Virus record (IMG/VR): IMGVR_UViG_2061766007_004328
DNA: 64,000 nucleotides
Reading direction: 5' to 3' (one strand)
From: an uncultured virus (IMG/VR IMGVR_UViG_2061766007_004328)
Lineage: Duplodnaviria > Heunggongvirae > Uroviricota > Caudoviricetes
Shown in pieces: positions 5,478 through 60,141 of the stretch. Position 1 is the stretch's first letter, and each line of letters starts with the position of its first letter. The position numbers were made by a program, and so were the translations under genes. Below the pieces are notes generated by a model. The model was not told the DNA's origin. It made no database searches and saw nothing but the letters and a program-made list of their open reading frames with translations.

Positions 5478-5936
5478 ATGGGAGTAAAGGTTGAAGGCAT
5501 CGACAGCGCTATGGCGTTCATCGAGCGCGAGGCGCAGAAGCGCGTCCGCGATTATCTTGCCGTATTGAACCGTATCGGCCTTGATGTGGTCAGGCAAATC
5601 AGGAACGGAACGGCGAGCTACTGGATTGACCAGACGGGAAACCTGCGAAACTCGATCGGATTCATCGTTATAGAAGACGGAAGGGTCGTGAACAGGAACT
5701 TCGCGTCCACCGTGCCTGGCGGAACGCTTGGCACCAAGGCCGGCGAATCGTTCGCCGAAGAGCTGGCGTCCAAGTACCCGAAGGGATATTGCCTGATTAT
5801 CGTGGCCGGTATGGACTACGCGGCCTACGTGGAGGCCGTCGAAAGCCGGTCGGTTCTCGCCGGCGGGGAACTGGTGGCCCACCGTCTGCATAAGGAACTG
5901 ACCGCAAAGCTCGAAGCAAGATGGCGTAGCAAATAA
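5478..5936 (+). CDS. HK97 gp10-like tail completion protein
   Basis: DQTGNLRNSIGFIV and VAGMDYAAYVE motifs. Confidence 0.65.
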   Translation: MGVKVEGIDSAMAFIEREAQKRVRDYLAVLNRIGLDVVRQIRNGTASYWIDQTGNLRNSIGFIVIEDGRVVNRNFASTVPGGTLGTKAGESFAEELASKYPKGYCLIIVAGMDYAAYVEAVESRSVLAGGELVAHRLHKELTAKLEARWRSK

Positions 5937-5940
5937 TTTG

Positions 5941-6001
5941 CGTAAATTATTGTAAATCAGATGTTTATATTTGCTTAATTCCGTAAAAATTCCTACCTTT
6001 A
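5941..6001 (+). promoter_or_regulatory. Class I repeated phage promoter
   Basis: CGTAAATTATTGTAAATCA..TTTGC..TACCTTTA; five more copies with the same spacing. Confidence 0.7.
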
Positions 6002-6034
6002 CTATACCAAAACAACACCCATACAAGTAAGTTT

Positions 6035-17085: not shown

Positions 17086-17194
17086 CCGGGCCGACATATC
17101 TCGCGCTACGTACAACCAACAACCACCCATACACACCCTTCGACCGCTATGCGATTCTCAGTTACTTACAATAGAAAATCAATGAAAAAATTTT

Positions 17195-17255
17195 CGTAAG
17201 TTACTGAAAATAAACGAGTTATATTTTGTTAATTCAAAAATTATCACTACCTTTA
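17195..17255 (+). promoter_or_regulatory. Class I repeated phage promoter
   Basis: CGTAAGTTACTGAAAATAA..TTTG..TACCTTTA. Confidence 0.7.
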
Positions 17256-17296
17256 TTATGTCAAAATAATACACCAACCTAAAAGAAGTAAGTAAG

Positions 17297-17596
17297 ATGA
17301 ACGTGTCTGTAATCCCCATCGAAAGCCTTTCCGACATACTTGGGTCGGAGGAGTTCGGAAAGAGATTTACCACCTCCGGAGGCTTCGAGGTCATCCTGGT
17401 CTCGCCGGAGGAATGGAAGAAGCTGAAGCCCGAATTTGAGAAACGCGTCAACTGGATGCCGTACGACAGCAACCTGATCGAGATGCACATCGCCAACTGT
17501 GGCTATGGGGTCATCGACCCGGAATACCTGACGGCCATCGACAACGAGTTCAGTCTGGACGATGTTTATTCATCCATTAAAGCCGAAAGAAAATGA
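17297..17596 (+). CDS. Hypothetical protein
   Basis: First ORF after the promoter; start motif. Confidence 0.65.
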   Translation: MNVSVIPIESLSDILGSEEFGKRFTTSGGFEVILVSPEEWKKLKPEFEKRVNWMPYDSNLIEMHIANCGYGVIDPEYLTAIDNEFSLDDVYSSIKAERK

Positions 17597-17838
17597 GACA
17601 GCAGCAACTGAACCGCTACCGGGAGCTGTGCAGCACCATCTGCGAGGTGTTGACGGACACGTACGAAGACGACGGTCGCGAATCATACCCGTTCGCAGTG
17701 AACCCGGCCACCTTCGAAGTGGTGGCCGTAGGAAGCGAGGCTGCTACGCCCGACGGATGGATCTTCGAGAGCATCCCGAATCTTGAATGGACGAGCATCG
17801 AAGAGTGCGCCCAGCAGTATTTTGATTTCAGAAGATAG
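17593..17838 (+). CDS. Hypothetical acidic protein
   Basis: ATGA-coupled ORF. Confidence 0.6.
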   Translation: MRQQQLNRYRELCSTICEVLTDTYEDDGRESYPFAVNPATFEVVAVGSEAATPDGWIFESIPNLEWTSIEECAQQYFDFRR

Positions 17839-17850
17839 GAGGACAGGAAG

Positions 17851-18279
17851 ATGACGGCAGCTGAGACATACAAGAGATATGAAGAGATCAGAGACCGGCT
17901 GGATGCCGGCGGATTATCGATCGCGGAGCGTGACGAACTGAACAAGCAGTGGAACGAAGCGATTCGCGGTATCATCCCGGAAGTTGGCCGGGGATGCACG
18001 ATCTGTTACTACTCGGACAAGCGGGCGGCGACCATCACGGAAGTCGAATACACGAAGGACGGAAAGCCGAAGGCCGTGACGGTCACGCACAATAAGGTAA
18101 AGTGCCTCGATTACTACGCCGGCGACTACGAGGTTCTGCCAGAGCTGGAGGAGCGGCACAGAGACCGGTTCACGCTCCGAAAGAATGGCCGCTGGTATAT
18201 GGAGGGTCAAGAGACGTCACCGAACTCGGTCGTCCTGATGCTTCACTACCAAGAGCATTACATCGATCCAAGTTTTTGA
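17851..18279 (+). CDS. Hypothetical protein
   Basis: Operonic ORF. Confidence 0.6.
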   Translation: MTAAETYKRYEEIRDRLDAGGLSIAERDELNKQWNEAIRGIIPEVGRGCTICYYSDKRAATITEVEYTKDGKPKAVTVTHNKVKCLDYYAGDYEVLPELEERHRDRFTLRKNGRWYMEGQETSPNSVVLMLHYQEHYIDPSF

Positions 18280-18311
18280 AAAAACAAGTCAAACCAAAAT
18301 AAGTAAGTTTT

Positions 18312-18878
18312 ATGAAGAAAATCGAAATTGAAGAAGCGAAGCTCCGCAAAGCTTTCCAGGAAGGCGGCAGCGAGCTGAAAGAAGGTCTCGTCGAACTGTT
18401 TGGCGAGGAATTGTTCAAGAGCAAGGTCTTCGACCCGGAATCGGTCGAATGGGTGGATCTCGGATTGCCGTCCGGCCGTCTCTGGGCAAAGGAGAACGCG
18501 GAGGGCCTATACACCTATGATGAAGCCGTCGGGGCGTTCGGAAAGTATCTTCCGAAAGGCGCGGCGATGGCTGAGCTTATCGAAGAGTGCCAGGTCGAGT
18601 GGAACAGCAAGAAGAAGGGCCTCGATGTCACCGGCCCTAACGGAAACTCGATCTTCCTGCCGGCTGCTGGCTACCGTGACCTGGGCGGAAATCTGTGCAA
18701 CGTGGGTGAGGAAGGCGACTACTGGACGTCGATGCCTTACGCTCATTCCAAATCGTTTGCTCCGAACTCGCAGACCCACGCTCGCATCTTGAACTTCTAC
18801 AGCGGCTACGTCTGCCCGTTGTACGACAGCCGCCGGGCTTTCGGCTTCAGCGTGCGTCCCTCCCGAGAATTAAATTAA
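18312..18878 (+). CDS. Remote DGR target protein 2 (small CLec-like protein, no signal peptide)
   Basis: WVDLGLPSGRLWA and IFLPAAGYR motifs; 3' end matches TR. Confidence 0.9.
   Translation: MKKIEIEEAKLRKAFQEGGSELKEGLVELFGEELFKSKVFDPESVEWVDLGLPSGRLWAKENAEGLYTYDEAVGAFGKYLPKGAAMAELIEECQVEWNSKKKGLDVTGPNGNSIFLPAAGYRDLGGNLCNVGEEGDYWTSMPYAHSKSFAPNSQTHARILNFYSGYVCPLYDSRRAFGFSVRPSRELN
18753..18867 (+). repeat. DGR variable region VR2
   Basis: 115 bp aligns ungapped to TR 58814-58928 with 13 mismatches, all at TR adenines. Confidence 0.95.
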
Positions 18879-18917
18879 GATTTTTTACCGTCCGCGCCCT
18901 TTCTTTAGGCGCGGACA
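18868..18917 (+). promoter_or_regulatory. IMH-associated tail and hairpin of VR2
   Basis: 49/50 identical to 57889-57938; stem GTCCGCGCC/GGCGCGGAC at 18890-18916. Confidence 0.85.
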
Positions 18918-18936
18918 TAGATCAAGAAGTAAGTTT

Positions 18937-19653
18937 ATGTATATCGTTGGAAAAGAAGAGGCCCTCCGGTTCGCAAAGGAGAGGCTCACAAAAAGCAAGG
19001 AAACGGCTCTCCGGCAGATTGCCGGGGATCAATGCAGGAGCTATGTGGATGATCATCCGCAGATGCTGAAAGACGCACTTGTCATAGACGGAGTGACCAG
19101 GTTGGTAGATGTCTATACGTTCCGCGAGTTCTATCACATTGAAGACGGGAAGAAGGTGATCAGCATTGAGTTCGAGAATGCTGCCTACGCGGTGGAACTT
19201 ATCGAGACCGGCGAGATCGCCCGTCCATACCTCCCGTACGGTAAGGGGAGTACGTTCGAGCTGAGCTTAATGCCGGAAGACGAGGAGTTCGGCCCCAACG
19301 GTCGGAAGTCGTTCAGCGGGCTCCGATTCGAGATGCCAAAACCCGACCGTATCGGAAAGGGAACGGCCAAGAAGCTGATCGGCTGGTTCGACTATCTTCG
19401 AGCTGAGAACGAGGCCAAGAAGGAGTACACCCGGAAGGCCATCGAGCGGAACCGCAAGTTTCAGGAGGCCGTTAAGGTGAAATTCCCGAAGGCGCATATC
19501 AAGTTGATGGACGGTGGATGGATGGAGTATTGCCAGTTCTCCATCGGATATTTGTCCGTCACTCTCGAGGCGCTGGATGACGGCGGCGTAAGCCGGTCGC
19601 TGCATATCGATACAGCCAATCTGCCGTCTACGGCCGAGATGCTGGGATTATAG
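18937..19653 (+). CDS. Hypothetical protein
   Basis: Start motif; ORF. Confidence 0.65.
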   Translation: MYIVGKEEALRFAKERLTKSKETALRQIAGDQCRSYVDDHPQMLKDALVIDGVTRLVDVYTFREFYHIEDGKKVISIEFENAAYAVELIETGEIARPYLPYGKGSTFELSLMPEDEEFGPNGRKSFSGLRFEMPKPDRIGKGTAKKLIGWFDYLRAENEAKKEYTRKAIERNRKFQEAVKVKFPKAHIKLMDGGWMEYCQFSIGYLSVTLEALDDGGVSRSLHIDTANLPSTAEMLGL

Positions 19654-19676
19654 TTTCACAGAAAGTAAGTAAGTTT

Positions 19677-20147
19677 ATGAGCCAGTTTGAAAGAATCGAA
19701 GATGCCGTCAAGGACTACCTTGACGAGTACGCAAAGGGCGACCCGGTGTTCGCCGAGAAGCTCGCCAATCCGAACAAGAGCATCGAGCAGTGTATGGAGT
19801 ATATCCAGTCGGAGATATTCCACGAGTTCATCAAGAACGGTGGTGGCCGGAGGGTTGCCGTGGCCTGCCCGTCACGGCAGCAGTGCTTCGGCCTTGCCGT
19901 CCACTATTACGACGAAGAAAAGATCGAGATCCGTCCGATGCCCGGCGTGACCTCCGTAAGCCACGCGACACCCGACGTACCGCTGACCGAAGAAGACAAG
20001 GAGAAAGCCCGGGAGAAGGCTATTCAGAAGCTCGCTGACGAAGAGGCAAGGAAGATTAAGGACGAGGAGGAGAAGAAGCGTCAGAAGGCGAAAGAGAAGC
20101 GAAAGAAGGACGAAGAGGCCGGGGTGTTGTTCCTGTTTGACGAATAA
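19677..20147 (+). CDS. PcfK-like (AcrIIA9-related family) protein
   Basis: KDYLDEYA..DPVFAEK..KSIEQCMEYI..FGLAVHYYDE; precedes PcfJ-like gene. Confidence 0.7.
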   Translation: MSQFERIEDAVKDYLDEYAKGDPVFAEKLANPNKSIEQCMEYIQSEIFHEFIKNGGGRRVAVACPSRQQCFGLAVHYYDEEKIEIRPMPGVTSVSHATPDVPLTEEDKEKAREKAIQKLADEEARKIKDEEEKKRQKAKEKRKKDEEAGVLFLFDE

Positions 20148-20160
20148 GGGTTGCGGGGAT

Positions 20161-21591
20161 ATGAAACCGAGGAACAAACACCAGCGGATGATCGTCGAAA
20201 TGGCGTCTCGGCTCCGGCCGCTCAATTACCGGGAGAAGGAATATGCAAAGTCGCTGTTCCCTGCCGAGGCGCTGTACTTTTCGCGGCGCGGCAATCACTG
20301 CGAGTTCCACTGTATGTGCTGCGGAGCCGTAGTGCCGGAGCTCGGGAAATGGCCGTTCGACGACTTCAATGAAGACACCTGGACTTGCCCGGAGTGCGGG
20401 GCGGAGTGTAAGGTTTGTCCGCAATACTCCGGCGGGTTCAGTCGGAATATGAACAGGAAGACCGGTGCTTTTTCGGTGCTGCCGACCGTATCGAGGTACA
20501 TAACGCTGCTGGACACGCACGGAGATTATCAGGTGCTCCGAACTTTTGTGTTTTCGCGCTGCAACGGAAGGACTACGGAGAACGGGATCGTCCGAGGACT
20601 GCCGACTGAGTTCTACCACCACGAGATTTACCAGAACTGGATAGATCCCAAAGGAGGGGAGACGATAGTCAGCAAGAGCTATCAGCGCAGTTTCAATTAT
20701 CACAACTGGGACTATGCTTCTCCGTGGGGGATCGGGACGCATAACGCGCACTGCTCCGGGTACTATATGATGGGTGACGTGTACGACAACACCGGGAACT
20801 TCTATTTCCCGAAGTTCGGCATCTCCCGGACGATCCGCCGGAACGGATTGAACACGAAGGTCGTGAGGACACTCTGTCCGAACTTGGATATCGGGACGCT
20901 GGCGATAAAGCTGCTGACGGACAATACCTACGAGGAGCTCGTGAAGACCGGCCAGCTGGAGCTTGTCCGATATTTTCTCGGGAACAGCCACGGGCGCAGG
21001 GCCGAAGACTATCTGCAGCAGATTCGCGTCTGTACGCGGCACGGTTACAAGGTCAAGGACGCTAACCTTTGGCTCGACTATGTTCACGACCTGATGTATC
21101 TCGGGCTTGACACCCACAGTCCGCATTACCTGTGCCCGGAGAATCTCGCCCAGGCCCACGCCCGGACGCAGAGAAGAAGGGAGAGGCTGGAGGCGAAGCG
21201 GGAAGCCGCCAAGGACATCGAGATAGCAAAGAAGTACGAGAAGGAATACTCGAAGCAGAAGCGCCGGTTCTTCGGAATTGCGTTCGGCGACGACAAGGTT
21301 ACGATATCCGTGATCCCGACCGTGGAAGGAATCCGGCAGGAGGGCGCAGCGATGCACCACTGCGTTTTCAGGAACGGGTACTACAAGTATAAGAACAGCG
21401 TGATCCTGTCGGCCAGAGACAAGTACGGAAACCGGCTCGAGACCATCGAGATTGGATTGAAGCCGCTGACAGTCCTTCAGAGCCGAGGGCTGCAGAACTT
21501 GCCGACCCCGGAACACGAGAGGATAGTCGCCCTCTGCACGGAGCATCTCCGGGATTTCCAGCTGCCGGAAAGGAAGCGAAAAATAGCGTAA
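20161..21591 (+). CDS. PcfJ-like domain protein
   Basis: WLDYVHDL..CPENLAQAH..EGAAMHHCV..ETIEI..QSRGLQN. Confidence 0.8.
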   Translation: MKPRNKHQRMIVEMASRLRPLNYREKEYAKSLFPAEALYFSRRGNHCEFHCMCCGAVVPELGKWPFDDFNEDTWTCPECGAECKVCPQYSGGFSRNMNRKTGAFSVLPTVSRYITLLDTHGDYQVLRTFVFSRCNGRTTENGIVRGLPTEFYHHEIYQNWIDPKGGETIVSKSYQRSFNYHNWDYASPWGIGTHNAHCSGYYMMGDVYDNTGNFYFPKFGISRTIRRNGLNTKVVRTLCPNLDIGTLAIKLLTDNTYEELVKTGQLELVRYFLGNSHGRRAEDYLQQIRVCTRHGYKVKDANLWLDYVHDLMYLGLDTHSPHYLCPENLAQAHARTQRRRERLEAKREAAKDIEIAKKYEKEYSKQKRRFFGIAFGDDKVTISVIPTVEGIRQEGAAMHHCVFRNGYYKYKNSVILSARDKYGNRLETIEIGLKPLTVLQSRGLQNLPTPEHERIVALCTEHLRDFQLPERKRKIA

Positions 21592-21647
21592 ATTATTGAA
21601 AATCAAGCCGTTAAATTTGCGTAACTCGCTGATAATCACTATCTTTA
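21587..21647 (+). promoter_or_regulatory. Class I repeated phage promoter
   Basis: CGTAAATTATTGAAAATCA..TTTGC..TATCTTTA. Confidence 0.7.
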
Positions 21648-21683
21648 CATATCCCAAATAATAACCCAAAAGGAGTAAGTAAG

Positions 21684-29803: not shown

Positions 29804-31255
29804 ATGGCAGGCGGCTTCAATTCCCCGAACATCTTGTTCTTGAACACGTACGACGCTCTCGATAGGAAGTATATCGCGGAGATCGTCCCGAAACTGCAAC
29901 GCGCCGGGTACAACAGATACGTAGAGTTGTACGCCGGCGGTTTTGCTATGCCGTTTGTCGTGGCCTCGCAGGGTATGAAGCCCGAGAATATGGCGTGCTA
30001 CGACATCTCGCTCTATTCGTCCATCCTGGGCTACACGTTCTCCGGGCAAGACCTCCGGCTGCTGGATGTATGCCTCGACGGGGAGCCCATCGAACTGAAC
30101 GGCAAGGATGCCTGCGCGAACGCGGCCATCCTTCTGTATGAGCAGGCGCTGGCCCGGCTGGAGAAGGCCGCGCATATCCATTATTTCAAGATGCTGGTCG
30201 ATAACCTCAAGGCCCGGCGAAAGGAGCATATCGCCTATATCGAAGGGCGCGTCCGCAGGATGGACGAGGCCCTGCACGGCCTGCACTTCGAGCAGCTGTA
30301 CATCTGGGACGCCTTCGCTAAGGAACACGACAGCGAAGGGACGTTCATCTGCAGCAATCCGCCGACCTACAAGGGCGCGTACGAGAAGTTCTTCGACACG
30401 GGTGGACGCATCACGTGGACGGGCGACAGCATCGAGTATGAAATCTGGGAAGGAAAGGTTCATTGCAAGGAGCTGATGGAGCTGGCCGAGGACGCGAAGC
30501 CCCTGGTCTTCCTGCTCCAGCAAGCGGACAAGGGAAAGGCCGCGACCGAGCACCCGGTGTCGTCTCGGTACCTGTCGCTGACGCAGAACGTGTACTACAA
30601 CTCGAACCGGCCGGAGGAGGTCGAGGAGATCAACGGCCTGAAAGGCTCGACGCTCAAGGAAGCCGTGCGGATGAAGTCGAAGTACCCGATTATGCCGTCC
30701 GACTACCTTATAAACCGCGATTCGCAGGTGCGCGTGTTCGTGGAGAAGACCCAGGTGGCGGAATACTACCGCCGGATATGGCTCCATAGGATCAACGGCA
30801 AGGGCGTGTCGTTCAACCTCTGCGTCGTAGTGGATGGCTACCTCGCGGGATTTATCGGACTGGACTTCAATCCGCTGATCCGCTCGTACAACGACGCGAA
30901 GGACTTCTTCATCCTGTCGTACGCCGTCCCTGCACCGAACAACCGGCTCCGTAACGCCCGGCTGCTGGTGCATATCGCCAAGAGCCGGCATATCATCAAT
31001 AAGTGTCTCGTCGGCTCGTCCTACAACCAGTACACGTTCTATCTCGTCCAGGCGAAGCGGATCTGCACCGTGGAGTATTCGCGCTACCACGAGGTGAAGG
31101 GACTGCGTGGCCTGATGAAGATAGAGAGCAAGAAGAAAATCAACGACGAGCTGAACGCGCTGTCGTATTATGGTGACCTGAACGAGAAAACCGAGGCCGA
31201 TGTGCTGAAGGACTTCCTCGATGTTGAAGAACGCTACGCAAATGGAAAAAAATAA
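29804..31255 (+). CDS. Adenine methyltransferase-like protein with an extra C-terminal domain
   Basis: YVELYAGG (SAM motif I-like) and NPPTY (motif IV-like). Confidence 0.55.
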   Translation: MAGGFNSPNILFLNTYDALDRKYIAEIVPKLQRAGYNRYVELYAGGFAMPFVVASQGMKPENMACYDISLYSSILGYTFSGQDLRLLDVCLDGEPIELNGKDACANAAILLYEQALARLEKAAHIHYFKMLVDNLKARRKEHIAYIEGRVRRMDEALHGLHFEQLYIWDAFAKEHDSEGTFICSNPPTYKGAYEKFFDTGGRITWTGDSIEYEIWEGKVHCKELMELAEDAKPLVFLLQQADKGKAATEHPVSSRYLSLTQNVYYNSNRPEEVEEINGLKGSTLKEAVRMKSKYPIMPSDYLINRDSQVRVFVEKTQVAEYYRRIWLHRINGKGVSFNLCVVVDGYLAGFIGLDFNPLIRSYNDAKDFFILSYAVPAPNNRLRNARLLVHIAKSRHIINKCLVGSSYNQYTFYLVQAKRICTVEYSRYHEVKGLRGLMKIESKKKINDELNALSYYGDLNEKTEADVLKDFLDVEERYANGKK

Positions 31256-31988
31256 GAAGATTGCCGATCTCGGCAACGGACTTGAACTTTGGAGTCTCGT
31301 CATCTCCACGCTGAAGGAGCAGGACATCAACGCGCAGGTTATGGACGACCGGCGGATGAAGATCCTGACGTCGAACATCAAGAACCGGGGGGCGCTCGAA
31401 AGCCTCCCGTACGTCTATAAGGACGGTGACACGTTCTCGATCATCAGCGGGCACCACCGCGTAAGGGCCGCGAACGCCGCTGGCCTGAAGACCATCTATG
31501 CGCTCGTAGAGACGAACACCCTCACGAAGTCGCAGATTGTCTCGAAGCAGATCGCACACAACGAGCTTGTCGGCACCGCCGACAGCGAAATTCTCGGGGA
31601 ACTGGTCAAGCAGATGCAGGAAGTGGACGATATCATCGCGTCCGGCCTCCCCGAACAGTTCCTCAATTCAATCAACGCCGAAAGTCCCGTGATGGACTTG
31701 CCCCAACTGGAGTTCGACTGGAGGACGATACAGCTCGTCTTTCTGCCGGAGAAGATGGAAGATTTCCAGACGCTCGTCAAGGCTGTGGAAACGAAGGCCG
31801 AGTATGTCGGAGTTGCCCCCGTCAGCCAGTTCAAGGAGTTCAGCAAGGCGATGGTTGAATTTGGTAAAACGCAGAATATCAAGTCAATAGGCGCAACGAT
31901 TCAGTTCCTCACGGAGCTGGCGCTTGAGGAGGTAGAGAAATGGCACGCAAGTCAAAGTTCAACCCAAAGTACCACATCCCGTGGATAG
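31242..31988 (+). CDS. ParB/Srx N-terminal domain protein
   Basis: EQDINAQVM..IISGHHRVRAA. Confidence 0.75.
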   Translation: MEKNKKIADLGNGLELWSLVISTLKEQDINAQVMDDRRMKILTSNIKNRGALESLPYVYKDGDTFSIISGHHRVRAANAAGLKTIYALVETNTLTKSQIVSKQIAHNELVGTADSEILGELVKQMQEVDDIIASGLPEQFLNSINAESPVMDLPQLEFDWRTIQLVFLPEKMEDFQTLVKAVETKAEYVGVAPVSQFKEFSKAMVEFGKTQNIKSIGATIQFLTELALEEVEKWHASQSSTQSTTSRG

Positions 31989-34078: not shown

Positions 34079-35497
34079 ATGAAAACCATTGAAGAAATTT
34101 TCGCGGACGGTAACACGCCGGACAAGATTGTCGGTATCCTTACCGGGCAGCAGAAGGACTGCCCGAAATGGGAAGTTCTCGAGCCGTTTTTCGATATGCG
34201 CAAGCACCCCGTGGTGGCAGACCCGACCCGCAGGCCAAAGACCAAGACAAAGGGCGGTCAGCGCGAGGTGCCAGCGAAGCTGCTCTACCCTGCCGAGCAG
34301 ATTGCGGCCCGGCGTATGAACCAGATGGCGTTCTCTATCCCGGTCAAGCGTATCTACAGCAAGCCGCAGAATGATGAGGAGAAAGCGTTCCAGCGCTCAA
34401 TCGAGAAGGTGTACGATGCCGTCCGTATCAACGGCGTCAACGCCAAGCGAATGTATGCCTACTTCGCATCCTGCGAGGTCTGCACGTTCTGGTATGTTGT
34501 CGAGGGTACGGTCGAGCACGAGAAATACGGCTTCAAGACCAAGGACAAGATCCGCTGCCGCAGCTTCTCGCCGATGCCGAAGAAGTTCTCGGGCGTCCGC
34601 CAGGCCGACATCTTCCCGTACTTCGACGATATGGACGACCTGATTGTCCTGAGCGTCCGTTATAAGGACGCGGAGAACGTGGAGCACTTCGACGCCTACA
34701 CTGCCGAGACCGCGTATTATTATGAACGCGGCGGCAATTCCGCTAAGTGGCAGCTGTCTGACGTGCCGAACCCGCTCGGGAAGATTCCGGCGGTTTACTT
34801 GTCGCGGTCGCTCCCTGTGTACTACGGTATCTCCGAAGACCGGGATGACATCGAGTTCACGATCAGCCGCAGCAGCGACAATATCCGCAAGAACTCCACG
34901 CCGATTCTGAAGATCAAGGGCAAGCTGCAGGGTGAGATGCCGGTAGGCGACACCGCTCGTCAGGTGTACCAGCTGGAAAACGACGGCGACCTCGACCTTG
35001 TGTCGCCCGTCCTGACCACCCAGGACGCCAAGACGCACGTCGGTATGCTGAAGGAGATCATCCAAGAGACCACGCAGCTGCCTGACCTGTCGCTGGAGAA
35101 CATCAAGGGTATCGGAGCGCAGAGCGGCGAGGCCCGGAAGACGCTTCTGATGGATCCGCACCTGAAGGTCGGGGACGAGTCGCACGACATCATCTGGGCG
35201 CTCGACCGCGAGTTTGAGATCGTGAAGGCCATTATCTGCGATATGAACCCCGCGTGGAAGCCGTACCAGTACACCACGACCTGCCGTCAGAAGATCACGC
35301 CGTTCATCCAGAACGACCGTACGACCGACATCGACAACTTCTCGAAGGCAAGCGGCGTGCTGATGTCCCAGAAGAGCGCGTTCGAGCAGGCCGACCTGGT
35401 GGAAGACCCCGAAGCCGACTACCAGCAGTACCTTGCAGAGACCGCACAGAAGGCCGAGGCCGAGCGGATGGTGAATGTCTTTGAAGCGGCTGAATAA
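34079..35497 (+). CDS. Portal protein (SPP1 gp6-like)
   Basis: Size and position after TerL; NPLGKIPAVY; TQLPDLSLEN..SGEA. Confidence 0.8.
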   Translation: MKTIEEIFADGNTPDKIVGILTGQQKDCPKWEVLEPFFDMRKHPVVADPTRRPKTKTKGGQREVPAKLLYPAEQIAARRMNQMAFSIPVKRIYSKPQNDEEKAFQRSIEKVYDAVRINGVNAKRMYAYFASCEVCTFWYVVEGTVEHEKYGFKTKDKIRCRSFSPMPKKFSGVRQADIFPYFDDMDDLIVLSVRYKDAENVEHFDAYTAETAYYYERGGNSAKWQLSDVPNPLGKIPAVYLSRSLPVYYGISEDRDDIEFTISRSSDNIRKNSTPILKIKGKLQGEMPVGDTARQVYQLENDGDLDLVSPVLTTQDAKTHVGMLKEIIQETTQLPDLSLENIKGIGAQSGEARKTLLMDPHLKVGDESHDIIWALDREFEIVKAIICDMNPAWKPYQYTTTCRQKITPFIQNDRTTDIDNFSKASGVLMSQKSAFEQADLVEDPEADYQQYLAETAQKAEAERMVNVFEAAE

Positions 35498-37392
35498 TGA
35501 GCGTAGAAGGCAGCTACAAGAAACTGGCCGCTGCCAACCTCTCGCGGATTGAGCAATATGTAGCACGAATCAGGAAGCTGTTCGAGGCCGCTCAGTCCCG
35601 GTTCGCAGACCTGTCCTCCGGGGTGGATTACGATCCGTCCGGGGGGCAGTTCTATTTCTCTGACTATCCCGAGCTGAAGAAGGAAGTGGAGAAGGCCGTC
35701 CGGGGGCTTGCTACGGGTATGCAGCAGGCCATCGTTAGTGCCACCAAGTCCGAGTGGACGAGGGGCACGAAGGATGCGGACGGCATTGTCGATTACGTGA
35801 TGAAGCAGGCTGGCCTCGATTCCCGGTCCGACATTCCGGCCCGCATCGTCGGTCAGAAGTTGAACAACCACGCTTCCGCCCTGGCTGCTTTCGAGAAGCG
35901 GGCCATCGGTGGCCTTCCGCTGTCGCGGAGAGTCTGGAACTATGCCGAACACCAGAAGATCGAGGCGGAGCTGGCCCGTTCCATAGCGAGCGGCTCCAGC
36001 GCAGCTGCGATATCACGCAGCGTCCGTCAGTACCTGAAGGAGCCGGACAAGCTGTTCCGCCGCGTCAGGGACGAGTTCGGCGTCCTACGTCTGTCGAAGA
36101 ACGCCCGGGCTTACACCCCCGGCGAGGGGACGTACCGCAGCAGCTACAAGAACGCGATGCGGCTGGCCCGGACGGAAATCAATATGGCGTACCGCAACGC
36201 GGAGCTGGCCGCATACGCCGACAATGAGCAGGTGGTCGGCATCGAGATCAAGCGCAGCGCGAACCCCTACCCGTGTCCGCTCTGCGAGTCGCTGGCCGGC
36301 CGGTACCCGAAGGACTTCAAGTGGAGCGGATGGCATCCGCACTGCCGCTGCTATATGGTGCCTATCATCGTCACGGAGGACGAGTTCTTCGAGATGCTCG
36401 ACAACGAAGACTATGACCCGACCACCTCAGAGAACTATGTCGGTGACGTGCCGGACGGATTCAAGGAGTGGGTCGGCGACAACTCGCTCCGCATCGAAGA
36501 CGCGCAGCTGCGTGGCGTAGGCCCGTACTTCATCCAAGATAACCCGGAGGTCGTTCAGCGGAACCTTCAGCTGCCGATTGACGAGTGGGGTGAGGTCGCC
36601 CGAACAAAGGGCGGTCTCGAGCTGGGCGAGATAGAGGCCATCCTGGACGATGCGCCGGAGATTGTCACGGAAGATCTGTTTGCCGTGGACGGTGCGTACA
36701 GTACCCAGCGGAAGAAGCTGCACCGGGACATCGTGGCCAAGTATATCGGAGATAACGATTCGGTGTCTGACGTCGTACATATGCTCGGCGGTGCGCCGGC
36801 CAACGGCAAGTCCACGCTCGTTGATAGCGGGCTGCTGAAATTCCCGGAAGGAAGTCTCGTAATCGACGCGGATAAGGTCAAGGCGATGATCCCAGAATAC
36901 AAGGAGATGGTCAGGAGCGGTAGCGATGCCCTGAAGGGAGCCGCCGCCAACTTCGTTCACGAGGAAAGCTCGATGCTGGGCCGCGCCATTCAGGAGAAGG
37001 CGTTCAAAAAGGACATCAGTGTCGTCATCGATGGTGTCAATGACGGTTCCTTCGAGAAGGTCAGGGGCAACGTGGAGCGGATCAAGAGGCTTACCGGCGG
37101 AAAGAGAATCCGGGCGGACTACGTGACGCTCGACACCGACCTTTCGCTCAAGCTGGCTGAGGCCAGGGCGAAGAAGACCGGCCGTCTGGTGCCACACGAT
37201 GTCATCGTCAAGGGGAATACCGGCATCGCGAAGGTCGTTCCGCAGCTGATAGAGAACAAGACCTTCGACGAGCTGTACCTGTGGGACACGAATATCAACG
37301 GGAAGCCGAGACTGATTCTCCGGCAGATTGACGGGAAGCTGGAGATTCTCGACCAGAAACTGTACGACGCGTTCCTCAAGAAAGCGAAATAA
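35497..37392 (+). CDS. MuF-like minor head protein fused to a zeta-toxin-like P-loop kinase
   Basis: RLARTEINMAY, CPLC, WHPHCRC; C-terminal GGAPANGKST, IDADKVK, VHEESS. Confidence 0.8.
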   Translation: MSVEGSYKKLAAANLSRIEQYVARIRKLFEAAQSRFADLSSGVDYDPSGGQFYFSDYPELKKEVEKAVRGLATGMQQAIVSATKSEWTRGTKDADGIVDYVMKQAGLDSRSDIPARIVGQKLNNHASALAAFEKRAIGGLPLSRRVWNYAEHQKIEAELARSIASGSSAAAISRSVRQYLKEPDKLFRRVRDEFGVLRLSKNARAYTPGEGTYRSSYKNAMRLARTEINMAYRNAELAAYADNEQVVGIEIKRSANPYPCPLCESLAGRYPKDFKWSGWHPHCRCYMVPIIVTEDEFFEMLDNEDYDPTTSENYVGDVPDGFKEWVGDNSLRIEDAQLRGVGPYFIQDNPEVVQRNLQLPIDEWGEVARTKGGLELGEIEAILDDAPEIVTEDLFAVDGAYSTQRKKLHRDIVAKYIGDNDSVSDVVHMLGGAPANGKSTLVDSGLLKFPEGSLVIDADKVKAMIPEYKEMVRSGSDALKGAAANFVHEESSMLGRAIQEKAFKKDISVVIDGVNDGSFEKVRGNVERIKRLTGGKRIRADYVTLDTDLSLKLAEARAKKTGRLVPHDVIVKGNTGIAKVVPQLIENKTFDELYLWDTNINGKPRLILRQIDGKLEILDQKLYDAFLKKAK

Positions 37393-37397
37393 TTTGT

Positions 37398-37458
37398 TGT
37401 AAATCATTGTGTATCAACGAAATAAATTTGCATTATTCCGTTAAAATCACTACCTTTA
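37398..37458 (+). promoter_or_regulatory. Class I repeated phage promoter
   Basis: TGTAAATCATTGTGTATCA..TTTGC..TACCTTTA. Confidence 0.65.
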
Positions 37459-37519
37459 TTATGCAATTCTAATACACCAACTACCAGTTGTTGGAAAGAT
37501 AGAGTTCTTTGAAATCCGA

Positions 37520-38828: not shown

Positions 38829-38839
38829 CGAAAAATTAT

Positions 38840-38900
38840 CGTAACTCATTGAAAATAAATGCGTTAAATTTGCCTATTTCCCGTTAATTTCCTACCTTTA
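38840..38900 (+). promoter_or_regulatory. Class I repeated phage promoter
   Basis: CGTAACTCATTGAAAATAA..TTTGC..TACCTTTA. Confidence 0.7.
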
Positions 38901-38943
38901 CTATGTCAAAATAATACACCAACCATTTAGAAGTAAGTAAGTT

Positions 38944-41818: not shown

Positions 41819-41913
41819 GCGGCGACGGTACCTCCGGGACTTGCTTCCGTTGGTTATTATTTTGGCAGGAGGCTCGCTGTGGTGGCGGGCCTCCATTTTT
41901 TGCGAAAAATTTG

Positions 41914-41974
41914 CATAAATCATTGATATTCAGTGCGTTATATTTGCATATATTCGTACTTTTTCCTACCTTTA
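41914..41974 (+). promoter_or_regulatory. Class I repeated phage promoter
   Basis: CATAAATCATTGATATTCA..TTTGC..TACCTTTA. Confidence 0.7.
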
Positions 41975-42049
41975 CAATACCAAAGGAAACACCCAAACCC
42001 CAACGGAGTGAAGGGTGAGACGCCAAAAAGTAACCAAGTAAGTAAGTTT

Positions 42050-56576: not shown

Positions 56577-57899
56577 ATGAGTGAAGTAACAAAACCCGTA
56601 ATGCTCGACGAGACCGGAAAGGAGATCGTTGAACAGCTTAAACGGCTTGCCGACCAGGGCTCCGCGACCATCGACGGCATCGACCTGTCGTTCCGCGACA
56701 TCCTCGGCGTGAACCTCGTGCTCCGCAACACGGCGAATATGTATGTCTGCCGTGCTGCCGGACTGTACCGCTTCCCGTTGGTCTATGGCAACGGCATCAA
56801 GAACGGCAGCGAGAACGCTCAGGCGTACACCAGCGGTGGCGGCGCCTATCAAGCCAACTTCGTGAACCACCTCGGCAACACGCTCGTCAGTCCGTTCATC
56901 GAACGCAACCCTGGCTGCGCTGCCGCATCCGCCGTCCTGCTCGGCCAGACCGCGCAGGGAATGATTACCGAGGTCAAGCTTATGGCCGGCCCTGACTGCC
57001 GCTATCTCCAGTTCACGCTTGCCTCCGTCCCTGCCACGAACGGCGTGGCCGTCCTGGCCATCAAGGACACCAACGACAAGGTGATTTGGAGCTGGACGAT
57101 CTGGGTGACCACCGACAACCTTGTAGCCGAGAACTACAAGAACAACACGAACGTGGACTACTACCTGCTGAACGAAGCCATCGGCACGATCTGGAACGCA
57201 GACCGCACGCGATGTATGAACCCGTTCTATCAGTGGGGTCGTAAGGATATGCTCGGCATCCCGGCGGCGTACAACAGCAACTCGCTGATGACGATGTACG
57301 ACATCGCCGGCAACACCGTCACGTGGGGCAATTATGGCGTGGCCAACGACGCAGACCAGGGCGGAACCGTCCGCTCCGTTGCTAACTCGATCCAGATGCC
57401 GGACAAGTTCTTCCTGCAGTACGACGAAACGAACTACAACTGGAACAACCTTGCCTGGTTCAACAACTTCTGGAACGCGGCCCTGAACGTCACGGGCGAC
57501 CTGGCCGACAATCAGGCCACGGCCATCAAGACCATCTACGACCCGTGCCCCGTGGGCTATATGCTCCCGGCAGGACGCTTCGCAACGGGATTCACGACCA
57601 CCGGCTCCAATGAGTCCGATTCCTCGAAGTTCAATGTCGTAGGCGAGTTTGCCAACGGCTGGAATTTCAAGAAGAACTCCGCAGACGCCGTAGGCGCATA
57701 TTGGCCCGCGTCCGGCTGCCGGAACAGAACGAGTGGCGGCTTGAACGGTGTCGGGTCGTACGGCTACTTCTGGTCGTTTGCTCCGTACTCGCAGACCATC
57801 GCTCGCAACTTGTACTTCTACAGCGGCAACGTCTACCCGTTGTACAGCAACCTCCGGGCTTACGGCTTCAGCGTGCGTCCCTCCCGAGAATTAAATTAA
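56577..57899 (+). CDS. DGR target protein 1 (probable receptor-binding protein, CLec-like C-terminus)
   Basis: IWSWTIW, YQWGRKD, DPCPVGY, PASG..WS..GFSVRP; 3' VR. Confidence 0.9.
   Translation: MSEVTKPVMLDETGKEIVEQLKRLADQGSATIDGIDLSFRDILGVNLVLRNTANMYVCRAAGLYRFPLVYGNGIKNGSENAQAYTSGGGAYQANFVNHLGNTLVSPFIERNPGCAAASAVLLGQTAQGMITEVKLMAGPDCRYLQFTLASVPATNGVAVLAIKDTNDKVIWSWTIWVTTDNLVAENYKNNTNVDYYLLNEAIGTIWNADRTRCMNPFYQWGRKDMLGIPAAYNSNSLMTMYDIAGNTVTWGNYGVANDADQGGTVRSVANSIQMPDKFFLQYDETNYNWNNLAWFNNFWNAALNVTGDLADNQATAIKTIYDPCPVGYMLPAGRFATGFTTTGSNESDSSKFNVVGEFANGWNFKKNSADAVGAYWPASGCRNRTSGGLNGVGSYGYFWSFAPYSQTIARNLYFYSGNVYPLYSNLRAYGFSVRPSRELN
57707..57888 (+). repeat. DGR variable region VR1
   Basis: 182 bp ungapped against TR 58747-58928; 15 mismatches, all at TR adenines. 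Confidence 0.97.
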
Positions 57900-57965: not shown

Positions 57966-58118
57966 ATGAGCAAGAAGACAGTCATCAAAATCAAGAACTC
58001 CGTTGTCGTCCTCGGCGCCAACCCGGTCGATGAAATCAAGAATTTCGACCTCGCTACCGCGACGCCGATGGATTGCTTCGAGTTTGTCAAGAAACTGAAG
58101 GAGCGCTATGGCAACTGA
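57966..58118 (+). CDS. 50-aa DGR-associated protein with a MutS C-terminus-like motif
   Basis: Hand translation MSKKTVIKIKNSVVVLGANPVDEIKNFDLATATPMDCFEFVKKLKERYGN; overlaps the avd start. Confidence 0.55.
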   Translation: MSKKTVIKIKNSVVVLGANPVDEIKNFDLATATPMDCFEFVKKLKERYGN

Positions 58119-58485
58119 GGGAAGGCTTCCGTTGTACAACAAGGTGCGTCAGATCTTCGACCAGTTCGAGATGTCCACGCGCAAGAATCCCGTCAACATC
58201 AAGAGGGGTATCGTTGCCGTGGTCGAGAATCAGCTGATTGAGGCGCTGGTGCTGCTGAGTTATGCCGAGGAGGTCACCGGCGATGACTGTGCGGAAGACC
58301 GGATGGATCTCATTGACAAGATCGGCAAGATACTGAAGGAAGTGAGAATCCGCATCCGCGTCATGCACGACCTGAAGTTTATGAAGGACACTGGCTTTGA
58401 TGCTCTCGGAAAGTTGCAGAACAATGCCAACGACCAGCTCGCCGGATGGCGGAATAAAACAGAGAAGATAATTGAAAAACGTTAA
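58108..58485 (+). CDS. avd: DGR accessory variability determinant (Avd-like four-helix bundle)
   Basis: 125 aa, helical; LPLY..IRIRVMHDLK..QLAGW; between target and TR. Confidence 0.75.
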   Translation: MATEGRLPLYNKVRQIFDQFEMSTRKNPVNIKRGIVAVVENQLIEALVLLSYAEEVTGDDCAEDRMDLIDKIGKILKEVRIRIRVMHDLKFMKDTGFDALGKLQNNANDQLAGWRNKTEKIIEKR

Positions 58486-58746: not shown

Positions 58747-58928
58747 CGCGTCCGGCTACCGGAACAGAACGAGTGGCGGCTTGAACAATGTCGGGTCGAA
58801 CGGCAACTTCTGGTCGTTTGCTCCGAACTCGCAGACCAACGCTCGCAACTTGAACTTCAACAGCGGCAACGTCAACCCGTTGAACAACAACAACCGGGCT
58901 AACGGCTTCAGCGTGCGTCCCTCCCGAG
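58747..58928 (+). ncRNA. DGR template region (TR)
   Basis: 17 AAY codons in the target reading frame; template for both VR1 and VR2. Confidence 0.95.
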
Positions 58929-58966: not shown

Positions 58967-60141
58967 ATGAGGTACACTTACGATGAGATCCACTCGCTCG
59001 TCACGTTCGCTTATCTGAAGGCTCGGGAGAAGGAACGTGCCACCGATTCGCAGGTGGAATTCGAGGTGGACCTGGAGAAGAACATCAGTGACCTCGCCAG
59101 GGAGTTGTACCGCCGGGAGTGGCTCCCCCAGCNNNNNNNNNNNNNNNNNNNNNNNNNNNNNNNACCGTCCGTGAGGTGTTCGCCCCGAAGTTCCGCGACC
59201 GCGTGGTCAGCCACGTGCTGTTTATGATGATATCGCCCATCTTTGAGCGGTACTTCGTATATGACAGCTTCTCGTGCCGTGTCGGAAAGGGAACGCTCGT
59301 CGGCATCGAGCGCCTGGAGCATCATATCCGCAGCGTGACGGACAACTACCGGCGCGAGGCGTTCATCCTGAACTACGACATCAAGGCGTACTTTATGAGC
59401 ATCGTTCGGAGCCGTCTGTACGACATCATCCGCACCACGCTCGCCAAGCACCAGAGACGGTTCCCGGACGCCATCGACTACGATTTTGCGGACTGGCTGA
59501 TACACACCGTCATTATTCTGAAAGATCCGCTCGAGGGCTGCGTGTACCACGGTGACCCGGCCCTCATCAAGCTGATACAGCCCGGAAAGAGTCTTCGCGA
59601 CCAGCCTCCGGGCGTTGGCATCCCTATCGGCGATGTGCAGAATCAGCTCTGCTCGAATATCTATCTGAACGTGTTCGACTGGTTCATCCTGCTGGCCCTC
59701 AAAGTCAGGCACGCCGTACGCTATGTCGATGACGGAAAGATGCTGCACCAAAGCTACGCCTACCTTGAGGATTGCTGGGGACGCTCGGAAGAGTTCCTGA
59801 AGAACGAGCTCGAACTGACGCTCCATCCGCTGAAGACGCAGATCACAAGCACGAACGAAACGACGTTCTTCCTCGGTGCGGCCATCAAGCCGTACCGCAG
59901 ATACGCCACGAACGAGGCCATCACCCGTATGAAGCAGCGCTTCATAGAGATTGACGGGCTGCTCGCAGACGGCACCGGGAACACGGAGCAGCTGATGGCC
60001 CGGATCAACTCGCACCTCGGCTATATGTCCCACTTCGATGAGAAAAAGATGATTGCGAAGGCACTGGCCAACGCACCGCATATCCTGCAATACTTCGACA
60101 TTTCGAAAGACCTGACGAAAGCAACTGTTAAAACAATATGA
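58967..60141 (+). CDS. DGR reverse transcriptase (frame broken by N gap 59133-59163)
   Basis: REVFAPKFRDRVV, DSFSCRVGKG, YDIKAYF, GIPIGDVQNQ, RYVDD, FLG. Confidence 0.92.

Follow-up and report, generated by a model that had tools for sequence, protein, structure and literature searches.

The window, the whole 64,000-nucleotide stretch of viral DNA analysed here, carries a single DGR together with two genes that end in variable repeats (Table 1). VP1, the first target, lies beside the cassette that holds the Avd accessory gene, the template repeat (TR) and the reverse transcriptase (RT) gene, and shows a weak FISUMP match (0.0023). VP2 lies in a remote part of the window, 13 kb ahead of the terminase genes and 36 kb ahead of the tail genes, and the genome also supplies the RT, accessory protein and TR that are cognate to VR2, the variable repeat of VP2. 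Bases 59133-59163 of the RT gene are masked (N) in the window.

Table 1. Features of the VP2 operon and of the DGR cassette, in window positions
Feature	Position	Strand	Remarks
Promoter-like cassette	17186..17285	+	About 100 nt; one of six copies of repeat family D1; TTG ... TAnnTTTG-type motif pair; ahead of VP2 operon
Three small ORFs	17297..18279	+	99, 81 and 142 aa; upstream in VP2 operon
VP2	18312..18878	+	ORF, 188 aa; second DGR target
VR2	18753..18867	+	Variable repeat; last 38 codons ahead of the final residues of VP2
IMH-like element	18843..18889	+	G+C-rich VR end, then 22-nt A+T-rich stretch
Hairpin/cruciform element	18890..18916	+	9-bp stem, 9-nt loop; same as hairpin after VR1
Downstream operon ORFs	18937..21591	+	238-aa ORF, then PcfK-like and PcfJ-like
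PcfK-like	19677..20147	+	Pfam PcfK, 9.2e-27
PcfJ-like	20137..21591	+	Pfam PcfJ, 4.2e-31
VP1	56577..57899	+	440 aa; first DGR target; directly 3' of tape-measure and tail genes
VR1	57707..57888	+	In VP1; 15 mismatches to TR 58747-58928, all at A
Avd accessory protein	58108..58485	+	phrog_3206 'Avd protein of DGR', 1.6e-05
TR	58747..58928	+	Template repeat, 182 nt; VR2 uses only the 3' 115 nt (58814-58928)
DGR reverse transcriptase	59119..60141	+	phrog_1423, 1.4e-63; Pfam RVT_1, 9.3e-08

Aligned with the 3' part of TR, VR2 has 13 mismatches in 115 nt and all 13 fall at TR adenines (A>T 7, A>G 4, A>C 2); given 29 A among the 115 TR positions, the hypergeometric probability of this outcome is 1.4e-9. 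The count of 13 in 115 nt, all at adenines, is exactly that of an earlier sequence-only reading of the DNA, which had also described the substitutions as unlike those of VR1: the two repeats differ at 12 of 115 positions and so represent two distinct alleles in one genome. The same reading had spoken of 12 AAY codons open to mutation, and there are indeed 12 TR-AAC codons in the VR2 stretch, 10 of which are altered. The first 24 nt of VR2 (18753-18776) match TR perfectly, and 11 nt separate its end from the VP2 stop codon.

The 3' flanks of VR2 (18868-18917) and VR1 (57889-57938), hairpin included, agree at 49 of 50 positions, again as first reported, and beyond 18917 the likeness collapses (24 differences in 30 nt). 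The G+C-rich part of the IMH-like element is common to VR2, VR1 and TR, while its A+T-rich part occurs at VR2 and VR1 only, and TR departs from both VRs immediately past the last 25 nt that all three have in common. Folded as DNA, the hairpin downstream of VR2 reaches -12.8 kcal/mol (z -3.97), a value equalled by none of 200 shuffles. VR2 therefore combines the marks of a target site, namely adenine-only differences from TR, a place at the 3' end of an ORF, an IMH unlike the IMH* of TR, and a hairpin. Because exactly three copies of the 25-nt VR end exist within the window (VR2, VR1 and TR), we find no third DGR target in it. Scanned for exact copies of the 38-nt VR end plus IMH, IMG/VR returned no match.

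Comparison between samples places the variation at the same codons, with VP2 orthologues differing at 10 to 12 of the 12 AAC codons. The closest orthologue (P0001) differs from VP2 at 11 of the 12 TR-AAC codons and at 1 of 176 other residues, and two others differ at all 12 sites and at 8 (P0002) or 16 (P0003) of the 176 residues elsewhere. The VR of a further orthologue (L002) has 14 mismatches in 115 nt to the TR of the window, 13 of them at A. Across 82 members of the VP2 family, columns average 2.87 bits of entropy at the 12 AAC sites vs 1.19 bits at 131 others (Mann-Whitney P 2e-7).

A small target with a partial VR recurs in three other lineages, whose RTs are 56-59% identical. VR and TR differ there at 19 of 121 nt with 15 at A, the remaining 4 lying at both ends (L004); at 14 of 122 with 13 at A, in a Bacteroidales MAG whose TR is on a separate contig (G001); and at 14 of 114 with 12 at A, in a 43-kb IMG/VR phage where the target lies about 12 kb from the RT (G002). 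The last of these also holds a tandem paralogue with a decayed VR, recognisable by 26 mismatches in 98 nt, many at non-A positions, and by a degenerate IMH. Among GenBank phages, blastn with 17800-19700 gave no match and tblastn with VP2 gave none at E <= 1e-5, with one unrelated 4-kb fragment at 1e-4; the TerL of the window is at most 31.5% identical to that of any GenBank phage record.

Within samples, we looked at VR2 variation in assembled contigs of four runs (X2, X4, X6 and X10) at 85% likeness, all 24 runs found being contigs. Those of the source run carry a single VR2 form. Most contigs that match VR2 in the four runs are TR and VR1 contigs cross-mapping, and the T>A and G>A differences at 18787-18832 come from such contigs, which are recognised by their loose ends. 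Flank contigs end at 18776 (X4) and 18764 (X10), where the variable sites start. In X6, one contig over 17600-18861 has 25 differences, at least 11 of which fall before 18753, the split being approximate.

Two readings would deprive VR2 of its standing as a target. It might be a relic, copied long ago from the end of VR1 and since lost to the DGR as a substrate, as the restriction of the TR match to the 3' 115 nt of 182 nt and the want of within-sample VR2 variants in the source-run contigs could suggest. We consider this very improbable, given that every difference in the 115 nt is at A and that 49 of 50 nt match downstream, yet the rest of VP2 is only 39% identical to VP1, that orthologues bear other alleles at the AAC codons, and that the truly decayed paralogue described above looks quite unlike VR2. 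The locus might instead be an assembly artefact, a chimeric join produced by the 76-nt exact repeat common to VR1 and VR2; contigs do break at this repeat, and none in the four runs bridges 18842-18917. However, a source-run contig over 17600-18871 joins the unique body of VP2 to VR2 in frame with 0 differences, and full-length orthologues come from independent assemblies (L002, and P0001 on a 63.6-kb contig). Exchange of the right flanks of a direct repeat would, moreover, be expected to split the genome and not to move a gene, and an artefact seems to us even less credible than a relic.

The cis-elements, the orthologue variation confined to TR-AAC codons and the same layout in three lineages support the sequence-only reading in its view that the one DGR of this phage has a second target, VP2, far from its cassette. 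Judged by its sequence, the ORF at 18312-18878 is a genuine target that appears to have been diversified in nature.

How such a site could be reached is suggested by work on the Bordetella phage BPP-1 (PMC3240598), where, as described, IMH and hairpin are enough to target a gene and sequence 5' of the VR is dispensable, a VR truncated at its 5' end still homes, and homology of at least 8 bp, or better at least 19 bp, completes 5' integration. VR2 agrees with these targeting rules as they are given in that report. On the BPP-1 model, the RT/Avd complex would copy TR RNA into adenine-mutagenised cDNA, and this cDNA would replace VR2 from the IMH leftwards, with its 5' end resolved inside the perfect stretch at 18753-18776. 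Resolution there would account both for the use of only the 3' two thirds of TR at VR2 and for the untouched state of a family-specific 9-residue loop just upstream of it. The product would be small and soluble, one C-type-lectin domain preceded by three short helices, with its variable residues on a beta-hairpin.

Structure prediction, which had been put forward as a check, bears out such an arrangement. In the AlphaFold2 model of VP2 (mean pLDDT 88.5), residues 1-40 form three short helices (pLDDT 55-85), residues 41-188 form a C-type-lectin-fold domain, and the VR2 codons map to a predicted beta-hairpin with strands at 156-163 and 166-174, on the exposed C-terminal face of the fold. All top VIA-align rows are lectin-fold, among them the Lcl C-terminal domain (8q4e, Z 8.7), TvpA (2y3c, Z 7.9), Mtd (1yu0, Z 7.7) and TaqVP (Z 6.3), the highest-ranking of them being domains of adhesins or fibre tips (Lcl, Bd2740, InvE, Mtd). 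Foldseek found no PDB structure at E <= 0.001, and phmmer against PDB sequences gave chance-level rows only. With the C-terminal domain of VP1, VP2 shares 39% identity (E 8e-21). It has no virion-anchoring domain comparable to those at the N-terminus of Mtd or to the first 300 aa of VP1.

VP2 itself has no match in Pfam or NCBIfam (even at E <= 10), PHROGs or PADLOC. Its homologues at 52-61% identity bear precomputed PF26707 (DUF8237), and some bear PF07603 or PF09603, while the nearest ESM Atlas clusters are DUF8237 (score 0.97); the same Pfam scan leaves PF26707 unmatched in those homologues too, and the profile may be absent from the Pfam copy used. DUF6273 gave no Pfam match to VP2 at E <= 10 and appears only as a weak BFVD structural row (E 7e-3, prob 0.20). 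The domain family as a whole (FISUMP / Lcl_C / DUF1566-like) is otherwise typical of surface or adhesin proteins.

Phage virion proteins in general carry no signal peptide. The N-terminus of VP2 is charged, and since the Kyte-Doolittle maxima are 1.03 for a 10-aa mean in the first 50 residues and 0.77 for a 19-aa window over the whole protein, it has no hydrophobic core for a signal peptide, in agreement with the first reading. VP1, the tail-associated target, has no signal peptide either, and, because virion proteins do without one as well, its absence from VP2 is uninformative on location.

The VP2 gene is flanked by a Holliday-junction resolvase gene and by PcfK and PcfJ genes, the latter (near VP2 also in the sequence-only reading) 0.8-2.7 kb 3' of it, and lies within a replication/recombination block at 6-32 kb; terminase-to-tail genes occupy 32-57 kb. 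No + strand terminator-like site was found between the cassette at 17186-17285 and the next cassette at 21578. The three small ORFs upstream have no Pfam or PADLOC match, and the 142-aa one has the sole PHROGs match among them (phrog_33370, unknown function). PADLOC found no defence or anti-defence family among VP2 and its 8 operon neighbours. ArdC-like and RadC genes occur elsewhere in the window, at 42.9-44.4 kb.

Neighbourhoods were annotated with PHROGs for 5 of the 15 relatives' loci fetched (L001-L015). A gene for an HTH regulator or repressor, an integrase, a primase-like protein or an exonuclease lies within 4 kb of the small target in 4 of the 5, and a tail gene in 0 of the 5. By tblastn, 26 other window proteins are absent from the 15 loci, save the RT and the 235-aa ORF after the RT, both in L004, and VP2 thus has no conserved partners among its neighbours. 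The operon had been described as early and non-structural. Gene context here and in the relatives upholds the second term, but the cassette does not prove early timing, as D1 copies also occur within the structural half, ahead of genes at 37.4, 38.8 and 41.9 kb.

As the first reading assumed, most characterised phage targets are tail proteins; second targets that are remote and non-structural have nonetheless already been published for phages. The remote second target is described in Quimbyvirus, Shimadzu, the Bacuni phages, nd4/nd12 and Lelie/CP11, and the arrangement here is not new in kind. In Quimbyvirus ('Quimbyviridae', Bacteroides phages; PMC8008677), by the published description, one DGR likewise serves two C-type-lectin targets in a Bacteroidota host, one after the tail-fibre genes and the other distal to the structural module and judged non-structural; in our window, too, the second VR lies outside the structural module (VP2 at 18.3 kb vs 32-57 kb). 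Adenine-specific variation is reported there between near-identical genomes, which resembles the orthologue variation seen here. The distal target of Quimbyvirus is given as running on the opposite strand, with methyltransferases, a nuclease and a tRNA ligase around it, whereas for VP2 the strand is the same and the neighbours are recombination/replication genes and PcfK/PcfJ, and that phage is described as having about 75 kb and a myovirus-like TerL, against about 64 kb and a tape-measure gene here.

In the Roseburia phage Shimadzu (10.1101/575076), VR1 is likewise reported in a tail gene beside the RT and VR2 elsewhere (orf43/44, function unknown); its host is a Firmicute, and diversification of both VRs is documented there by read data from culture and mice, compared with contigs only in our case. 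The Bacuni phages of Bacteroides uniformis (PMC8143477) are described as siphoviruses with Avd-TR-RT, one adjacent and one distant target (ORF43), DUF1566/Fib_succ_major-type lectin motifs and a VR in the last ~35 residues, and their authors view both targets as adhesion proteins akin to fimbrial tips. The nd4/nd12 (PMC10743442) and Faecalibacterium Lelie/CP11 (PMC11792537) systems are presented as pairing a large and a small target on one TR, with VR2 shorter than VR1 and hypervariable residues on a beta-hairpin; their small targets (nd4_tgt2 and nd12_tgt2 in the former), like VP2, are single lectin-fold globules with short flanking helices, but are reported to bear DUF6273, whereas relatives of VP2 bear DUF8237, Lcl_C or Fib_succ_major. 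Mtd of BPP-1 and TvpA of Treponema denticola have, like VP2, a lectin-fold variable domain and a C-terminal VR, and the Mtd target also has the IMH and hairpin architecture. Unlike them, at ~10% sequence identity, VP2 has only ~40 residues before the lectin domain and no beta-prism or beta-sandwich anchors, and Mtd-type N-terminal tail-fibre anchoring domains are absent, residues 1-40 being all that precedes the domain.

The role of small second DGR targets is acknowledged as an open question in the published discussions (PMC10743442, PMC11792537, PMC8008677). To these systems the present case adds a rumen Bacteroidales lineage in which a small target is kept in four related phages, its place beside immunity and replication genes, a natural pair of active and decayed paralogues, a clear instance of partial TR use consistent with the BPP-1 rules for 5' cDNA integration, and a link between a small target and a large, mostly viral protein family. 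A large DGR survey states that remote targets were undetectable by its approach (PMC8144416), and remote target sites are for that reason probably under-counted.

As to what VP2 does, its gene position makes a non-virion role plausible, and from that position we suggest that VP2 is most likely a non-virion binder co-produced with the replication/recombination genes, with somewhat better than even odds. Its ligand would be a variable one of the host or of a rival phage, e.g., a defence or takeover target, met within the infected cell or once lysis has occurred, and VP2 would not be the receptor-binding tip of the tail. Taken as a whole, a genuine diversified second target that is probably a non-virion binder is the best explanation of our observations, at a probability of about 0.6.

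Possible too, though in our judgement rather unlikely, is a virion-associated auxiliary adhesin, a copy of the tail-tip lectin that would dock by its N-terminal helices and give a second, independently evolving specificity for a host receptor or rumen glycans. The homology of VP2 to the C-terminal domain of tail-associated VP1 with the same TR as template, a fold that resembles receptor-binding DGR proteins and adhesin tips, and the Mtd-like receptor-binding role proposed for small 'target2' proteins in the account of PMC10743442 are all consistent with it, and an absent signal peptide would be normal for a virion protein. The distance of the gene from terminase and tail genes, within a replication/recombination block, argues against it, as do the repressor, integrase, primase or exonuclease genes that adjoin the small targets of relatives and the many family members of 150-160 aa that lack N-terminal helices; selection in infected mice, moreover, is reported to have acted less strongly on the VR2 alleles of Shimadzu than on its tail VR1 (10.1101/575076). 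A soluble lectin working outside the cell after lysis, either masking receptors or debris to spare progeny or binding environmental glycans, fits the lectin fold, the adhesin-like relatives and the small size and solubility of VP2, which has no conserved need for disulfides (C93 is the sole invariant Cys among 18 close homologues). This is improbable, however, as VP2 has no export signal and the VR1 and VR2 alleles of one genome differ at 12 of 115 nt, which makes a common receptor unlikely.

Several observations count against the non-virion binder. VP2 is in effect a free-standing copy of the VP1 tip domain, which fits an auxiliary adhesin, and both the FISUMP / Lcl_C / DUF1566-like family and the structural matches of VP2 are of surface or adhesin type. 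In one relative (L012), a head-maturation protease gene lies 2.3 kb downstream of the small target. The promoter cassette is not particular to the replication block, and PADLOC is silent at VP2 and its 8 neighbours.

A broader and more tentative idea, which we regard as unlikely, is that DUF8237-type small lectins are widespread phage DGR-programmed intracellular binders, made with the first genes after infection or induction as an antibody-like tool, able to evolve, against rival phages or host defence proteins that vary. If true, one retroelement would serve two arms races, entry via VP1 and intracellular conflict via VP2. The DUF8237-type family runs to thousands of proteins of 140-190 aa, most of them viral, and the positions at which they vary coincide with TR-AAC codons.

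The window carries a single DGR cassette, placed 3' of the tape-measure and tail genes, and the small protein VP2 is a real second target of this DGR that varies in nature. Besides VR1, in the tail-associated target VP1, and the template repeat (TR), a repeat finder located a third repeat copy inside the VP2 gene. Ungapped comparison of its variable repeat, VR2, with the 3' part of TR gave 13 mismatches in 115 nt, 13/13 at TR adenines (seven A>T, four A>G and two A>C), and the probability of all 13 landing by chance on the 29 adenines of this stretch is 1.4e-9. VR1 likewise departs from TR (compared from 58747) at 15 positions, 15/15 at adenines, and the two VRs differ from each other at 12 positions. 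The 50 nt 3' of VR2 match those 3' of VR1 at 49/50 positions, and the likeness ends there. These values exactly reproduce those of a sequence-only reading, which had proposed a remote second target. The window has exactly three occurrences of the 25-nt VR end common to both VRs and TR (0 expected), and a third target is therefore absent from it.

Features of the two DGR targets, their cassette and other parts of the window
Feature	Position	Details
VP2 gene (188 aa)	18312-18878 (+)	second DGR target
Third repeat copy	18686-18871	
VR2	18753-18867	aligned with TR 58814-58928
VP2 loop, residues 123-133	18678-18716	aligns with unused 5' TR part
Inverted repeat	18890-18916	9-bp stem, 9-nt loop; -12.8 kcal/mol, z -3.97, 0/200 shuffles as good
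VP1 gene (440 aa)	56577-57899	first DGR target; last 182 nt are VR1
Avd gene	58108-58485	phrog_3206, 1.6e-05
TR	58747-58928	
Reverse transcriptase (RT)	59119-60141	phrog_1423, 1.4e-63; RVT_1, 9.3e-08
Replication/recombination block	6-32 kb	PHROG and Pfam scans
Structural block	32-57 kb	small and large terminase subunits, portal, head, tape measure, tail; DGR next
Promoter-like cassettes, six copies	5932-6031, 17186-17285, 21578-21677, 37389-37488, 38831-38930, 41905-42004	
DAM-like/GNAT-like protein	29804-31985	PF22555, 4e-47; PF22559, 7.5e-20; range includes the ParB-like nuclease
Mu-F-like head protein fused to Zeta-toxin-like domain	35497-37389	Zeta_toxin 4.4e-17, residues 426-593; PHROGs "Bxa ADP-ribosyl transferase", 3.9e-68
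RadC-like JAB and ArdC-like proteins	42869-44379	
ORF open at window start	1-1539	
Large tail-type ORF open at window end	62086-63999	phrog_22546, 3.2e-100

Variation was followed in contigs and in orthologues. All or part of the stretch is contained in 20 of the 24 listed runs, which come from 12 studies (mostly bovine/gut metagenomes) and all consist of contigs; those of four runs were compared with the VR2 region. In the probable source run, one contig (17600-18871) links the unique gene body to VR2 with 0 differences. For two further studies the flank contig ends at 18776 or 18764, the start of the variable sites; in a third a contig covering 17600-18861 carries 25 differences, at least 11 of them in the 1150 nt 5' of VR2, the remainder being approximate. 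Contigs of VR1 and TR cross-map onto VR2, which explains what look like T>A and G>A changes there. The sequence-only reading had seen the codons of VR2 as open to mutation; adenine-specific variation is present between orthologues, and none was seen within a sample in the assembled contigs of the four runs.

Among 6763 VP2 homologues (103-329 aa), the nearest are complete 188-aa proteins that were assembled independently. Three of these, P0001, P0002 and P0003, differ from VP2 at 11, 12 and 12 of the 12 VR2 codons that read AAC in TR, and at 1, 8 and 16 of 176 residues elsewhere. At the DNA level, the VR of a relative's locus (L002) shows 14 mismatches in 115 nt to the window TR, 13 at A, and 18 differences from VR2, 17 at TR-A positions. 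Across 82 aligned family members, mean entropy is 2.87 bits at the 12 AAC sites versus 1.19 at 131 other sites (P 2e-7). The concentration of orthologue differences at these codons, together with the adenine-only mismatches, bears out the assignment of VP2 to the DGR.

Three more lineages, with RTs 56-59% identical to that of the window, carry this small target too, again with a partial VR. At locus L004 the VR, with TR and RT 5 kb upstream, departs from TR at 19 of 121 nt; 15 of these mismatches are at A, and the four others fall at both ends of the aligned stretch. In a goat omasum Bacteroidales MAG the target lies on a 189-kb contig and TR/RT on another; its VR has 14 mismatches in 122 nt, 13 at A, and shares IMH and hairpin with its element's VR1. 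In a 43-kb IMG/VR phage (95% complete) the VR, ~12 kb from the RT, has 14 mismatches in 114 nt, 12 at A. Adjoining this intact gene is a tandem paralogue (L001:2518-2928, equal to L013:9518-9928) whose decayed VR differs from its own phage's TR at 26 of 98 positions, many of them non-A, and has a degenerate IMH, providing a useful picture of an inactive site.

Another locus, L003:550-1080, aligns with window 18426-18940 at 97% DNA identity in the gene body (317/327). Its VR differs from VR2 at 12 positions where the window TR has no A, and its IMH and hairpin differ too, so that the same gene appears, from these alignments, to have been re-fitted to another phage's TR by a modular swap of the target end.

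Both VRs share a G+C-rich end with TR, followed by a 22-nt A+T-rich stretch that is absent from TR and then by an inverted repeat. This order is the layout of BPP-1 as described in the available part of PMC3240598, according to which a recipient VR requires an IMH made up of a (GC)14 element and one of 21 bp, with a hairpin/cruciform required 3' of it. The same text states that 5' cDNA integration needs TR homology (at least 8 bp being enough, at least 19 bp better), that no sequences upstream of VR are needed, and that a VR truncated at its 5' end still homes. That VR2 draws on TR's 3' 115 nt alone is thus expected from the known BPP-1 mechanism. The first 24 nt of VR2 match TR perfectly, and homing would resolve within this stretch. 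Directly 5' of it lies a 27-nt (9-codon) stretch missing from TR and VR1, beyond which likeness to TR is at the level of homologous proteins, with many non-A differences. The loop at residues 123-133 is among the family's most variable parts (entropy 3.0-3.6 bits at 123-125, 129, 130 and 133), and N130G, whose codon aligns with a TR AAC, is the sole VP2-P0001 difference outside VR. These features could stem from homing tracts that were longer in the past or are so occasionally, or from ordinary selection acting on a binding loop.

VP2 had no match in Pfam, NCBIfam, PHROG or PADLOC, and its AlphaFold2 model (82 sequences; mean pLDDT 88.5) comprises three short helices at residues 8-36 followed by a mixed alpha/beta domain. 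A search against 48,161 PDB representatives returned lectin-fold rows only, matching over residues 41-188: the Legionella Lcl C-terminal domain (8q4e, Z 8.7), the Bdellovibrio Bd2740 tip (8oks, 8.6), InvE (5n40, 8.0), TvpA (2y3c, 7.9), Mtd (1yu0, 7.7) and TaqVP (5vf4, 6.3). Z near 8 is middling, yet all rows are of one fold, and DGR variable proteins already known account for three of them. Among viral proteins VP2 best matches a "Fibrobacter succinogenes major paralogous domain" protein (E 6e-4); homologues bear precomputed PF26707, PF07603 or PF09603, and in the ESM Atlas VP2 adjoins small, mostly viral DUF8237 clusters (score 0.97). VP2 also shares 39% identity with the C-terminal ~120 residues of VP1 (E 8e-21). 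In the model, the VR2 codons map to a beta-hairpin (strands 156-163 and 166-174), a feature likewise described for the small targets in the accessible text of PMC10743442. What these analyses establish is a hypervariable lectin-fold binding domain.

The replication/recombination block runs in the order SbcC-like, RecT, replication initiator, dUTPase, radical-SAM-like and Holliday-junction resolvase (DUF1064) genes, then the operon of VP2, which also holds PcfK and PcfJ, and after it a MazG-like pyrophosphatase and a ParB-like nuclease. VP2 is the fourth gene behind the second copy of a ~100-nt promoter-like cassette, and no + strand terminator-like site was found between this copy and the next. 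The copies have in common a motif pair of the TTG ... TAnnTTTG type, a CTACCTTTA box that is conserved and a AAGGAGTAAG-type leader, and probably represent a family of phage-specific promoters/leaders for use in a Bacteroidota host. As the six copies extend beyond the replication block, they give no date for VP2 expression; of the early non-structural operon suggested from sequence, the placement with replication genes and PcfK/PcfJ stands and the timing does not follow from the cassette.

Five of the 15 fetched relatives' loci were annotated. At L004 the small target leads the rightward genes, with a 260-aa ORF, an HTH repressor and an integrase opposite it and an exonuclease downstream; at L015 a divergent HTH regulator lies just left of the target and a primase-like protein downstream. 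The target is directly 3' of a primase-like protein at L013 and L012, with a head protease 2.3 kb further on in the latter, and L008 (transposase and RNase H neighbours) is uninformative. A tail gene beside the small target was found in 0/5 of these loci, and none of VP2's neighbours in the window is kept beside it in the 15 fetched loci.

The interesting part is what the small target binds, and where. Its gene is found alongside genes for immunity and replication. We favour, at a probability of roughly 55-60%, a non-virion binder that is produced along with the replication genes, on the grounds of gene position, the lack of an anchoring domain, and, in the available text on phage Shimadzu (bioRxiv 10.1101/575076), selection that was weaker on VR2 than on VR1 of the tail. 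The main rival, a virion-associated auxiliary adhesin, draws on the close kinship of VP2 with the VP1 tip domain and on its adhesin-like relatives; we consider it unlikely, though worth weighing. The missing signal peptide is undecisive, since VP1 also lacks one.

A tail target paired with a remote small target has published precedents and is not new in kind. In the parts of these reports available, many phage-associated DGRs have an adjacent target and a second one, non-adjacent, within 50 kb (PMC5758913); Quimbyvirus has one 3' of the tail fibres and a distal, non-structural one in a defence-related island (PMC8008677); in Bacuni phages a distant target, ORF43, bears DUF1566/Fib_succ_major motifs (PMC8143477); nd4/nd12 (PMC10743442) and Lelie/CP11 (PMC11792537) have a large and a small target; and diversification of both Shimadzu VRs was shown experimentally (bioRxiv 10.1101/575076). 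By its own account in the available text, the survey of PMC8144416 could not detect remote targets.

Several other genes were recorded. The DAM-like/GNAT-like protein may be a DNA-modification module and is followed by the ParB-like nuclease, just 5' of the terminase. The Mu-F-like minor head protein with its Zeta-toxin-like domain may be an ejected effector. The two terminal ORFs fail to join in frame on closing, so the window was cut out of a record that is longer or permuted; were the map a circle of ~64 kb, VR2 and TR would be ~24 kb apart going the opposite way. RadC-like, ArdC-like and PcfK/PcfJ genes are better known from conjugative elements. Here the RadC-like protein and the ArdC-like one, an anti-restriction protein (ArdcN plus zincin metallopeptidase), are found midway along the structural half, preceded by the last promoter cassette.
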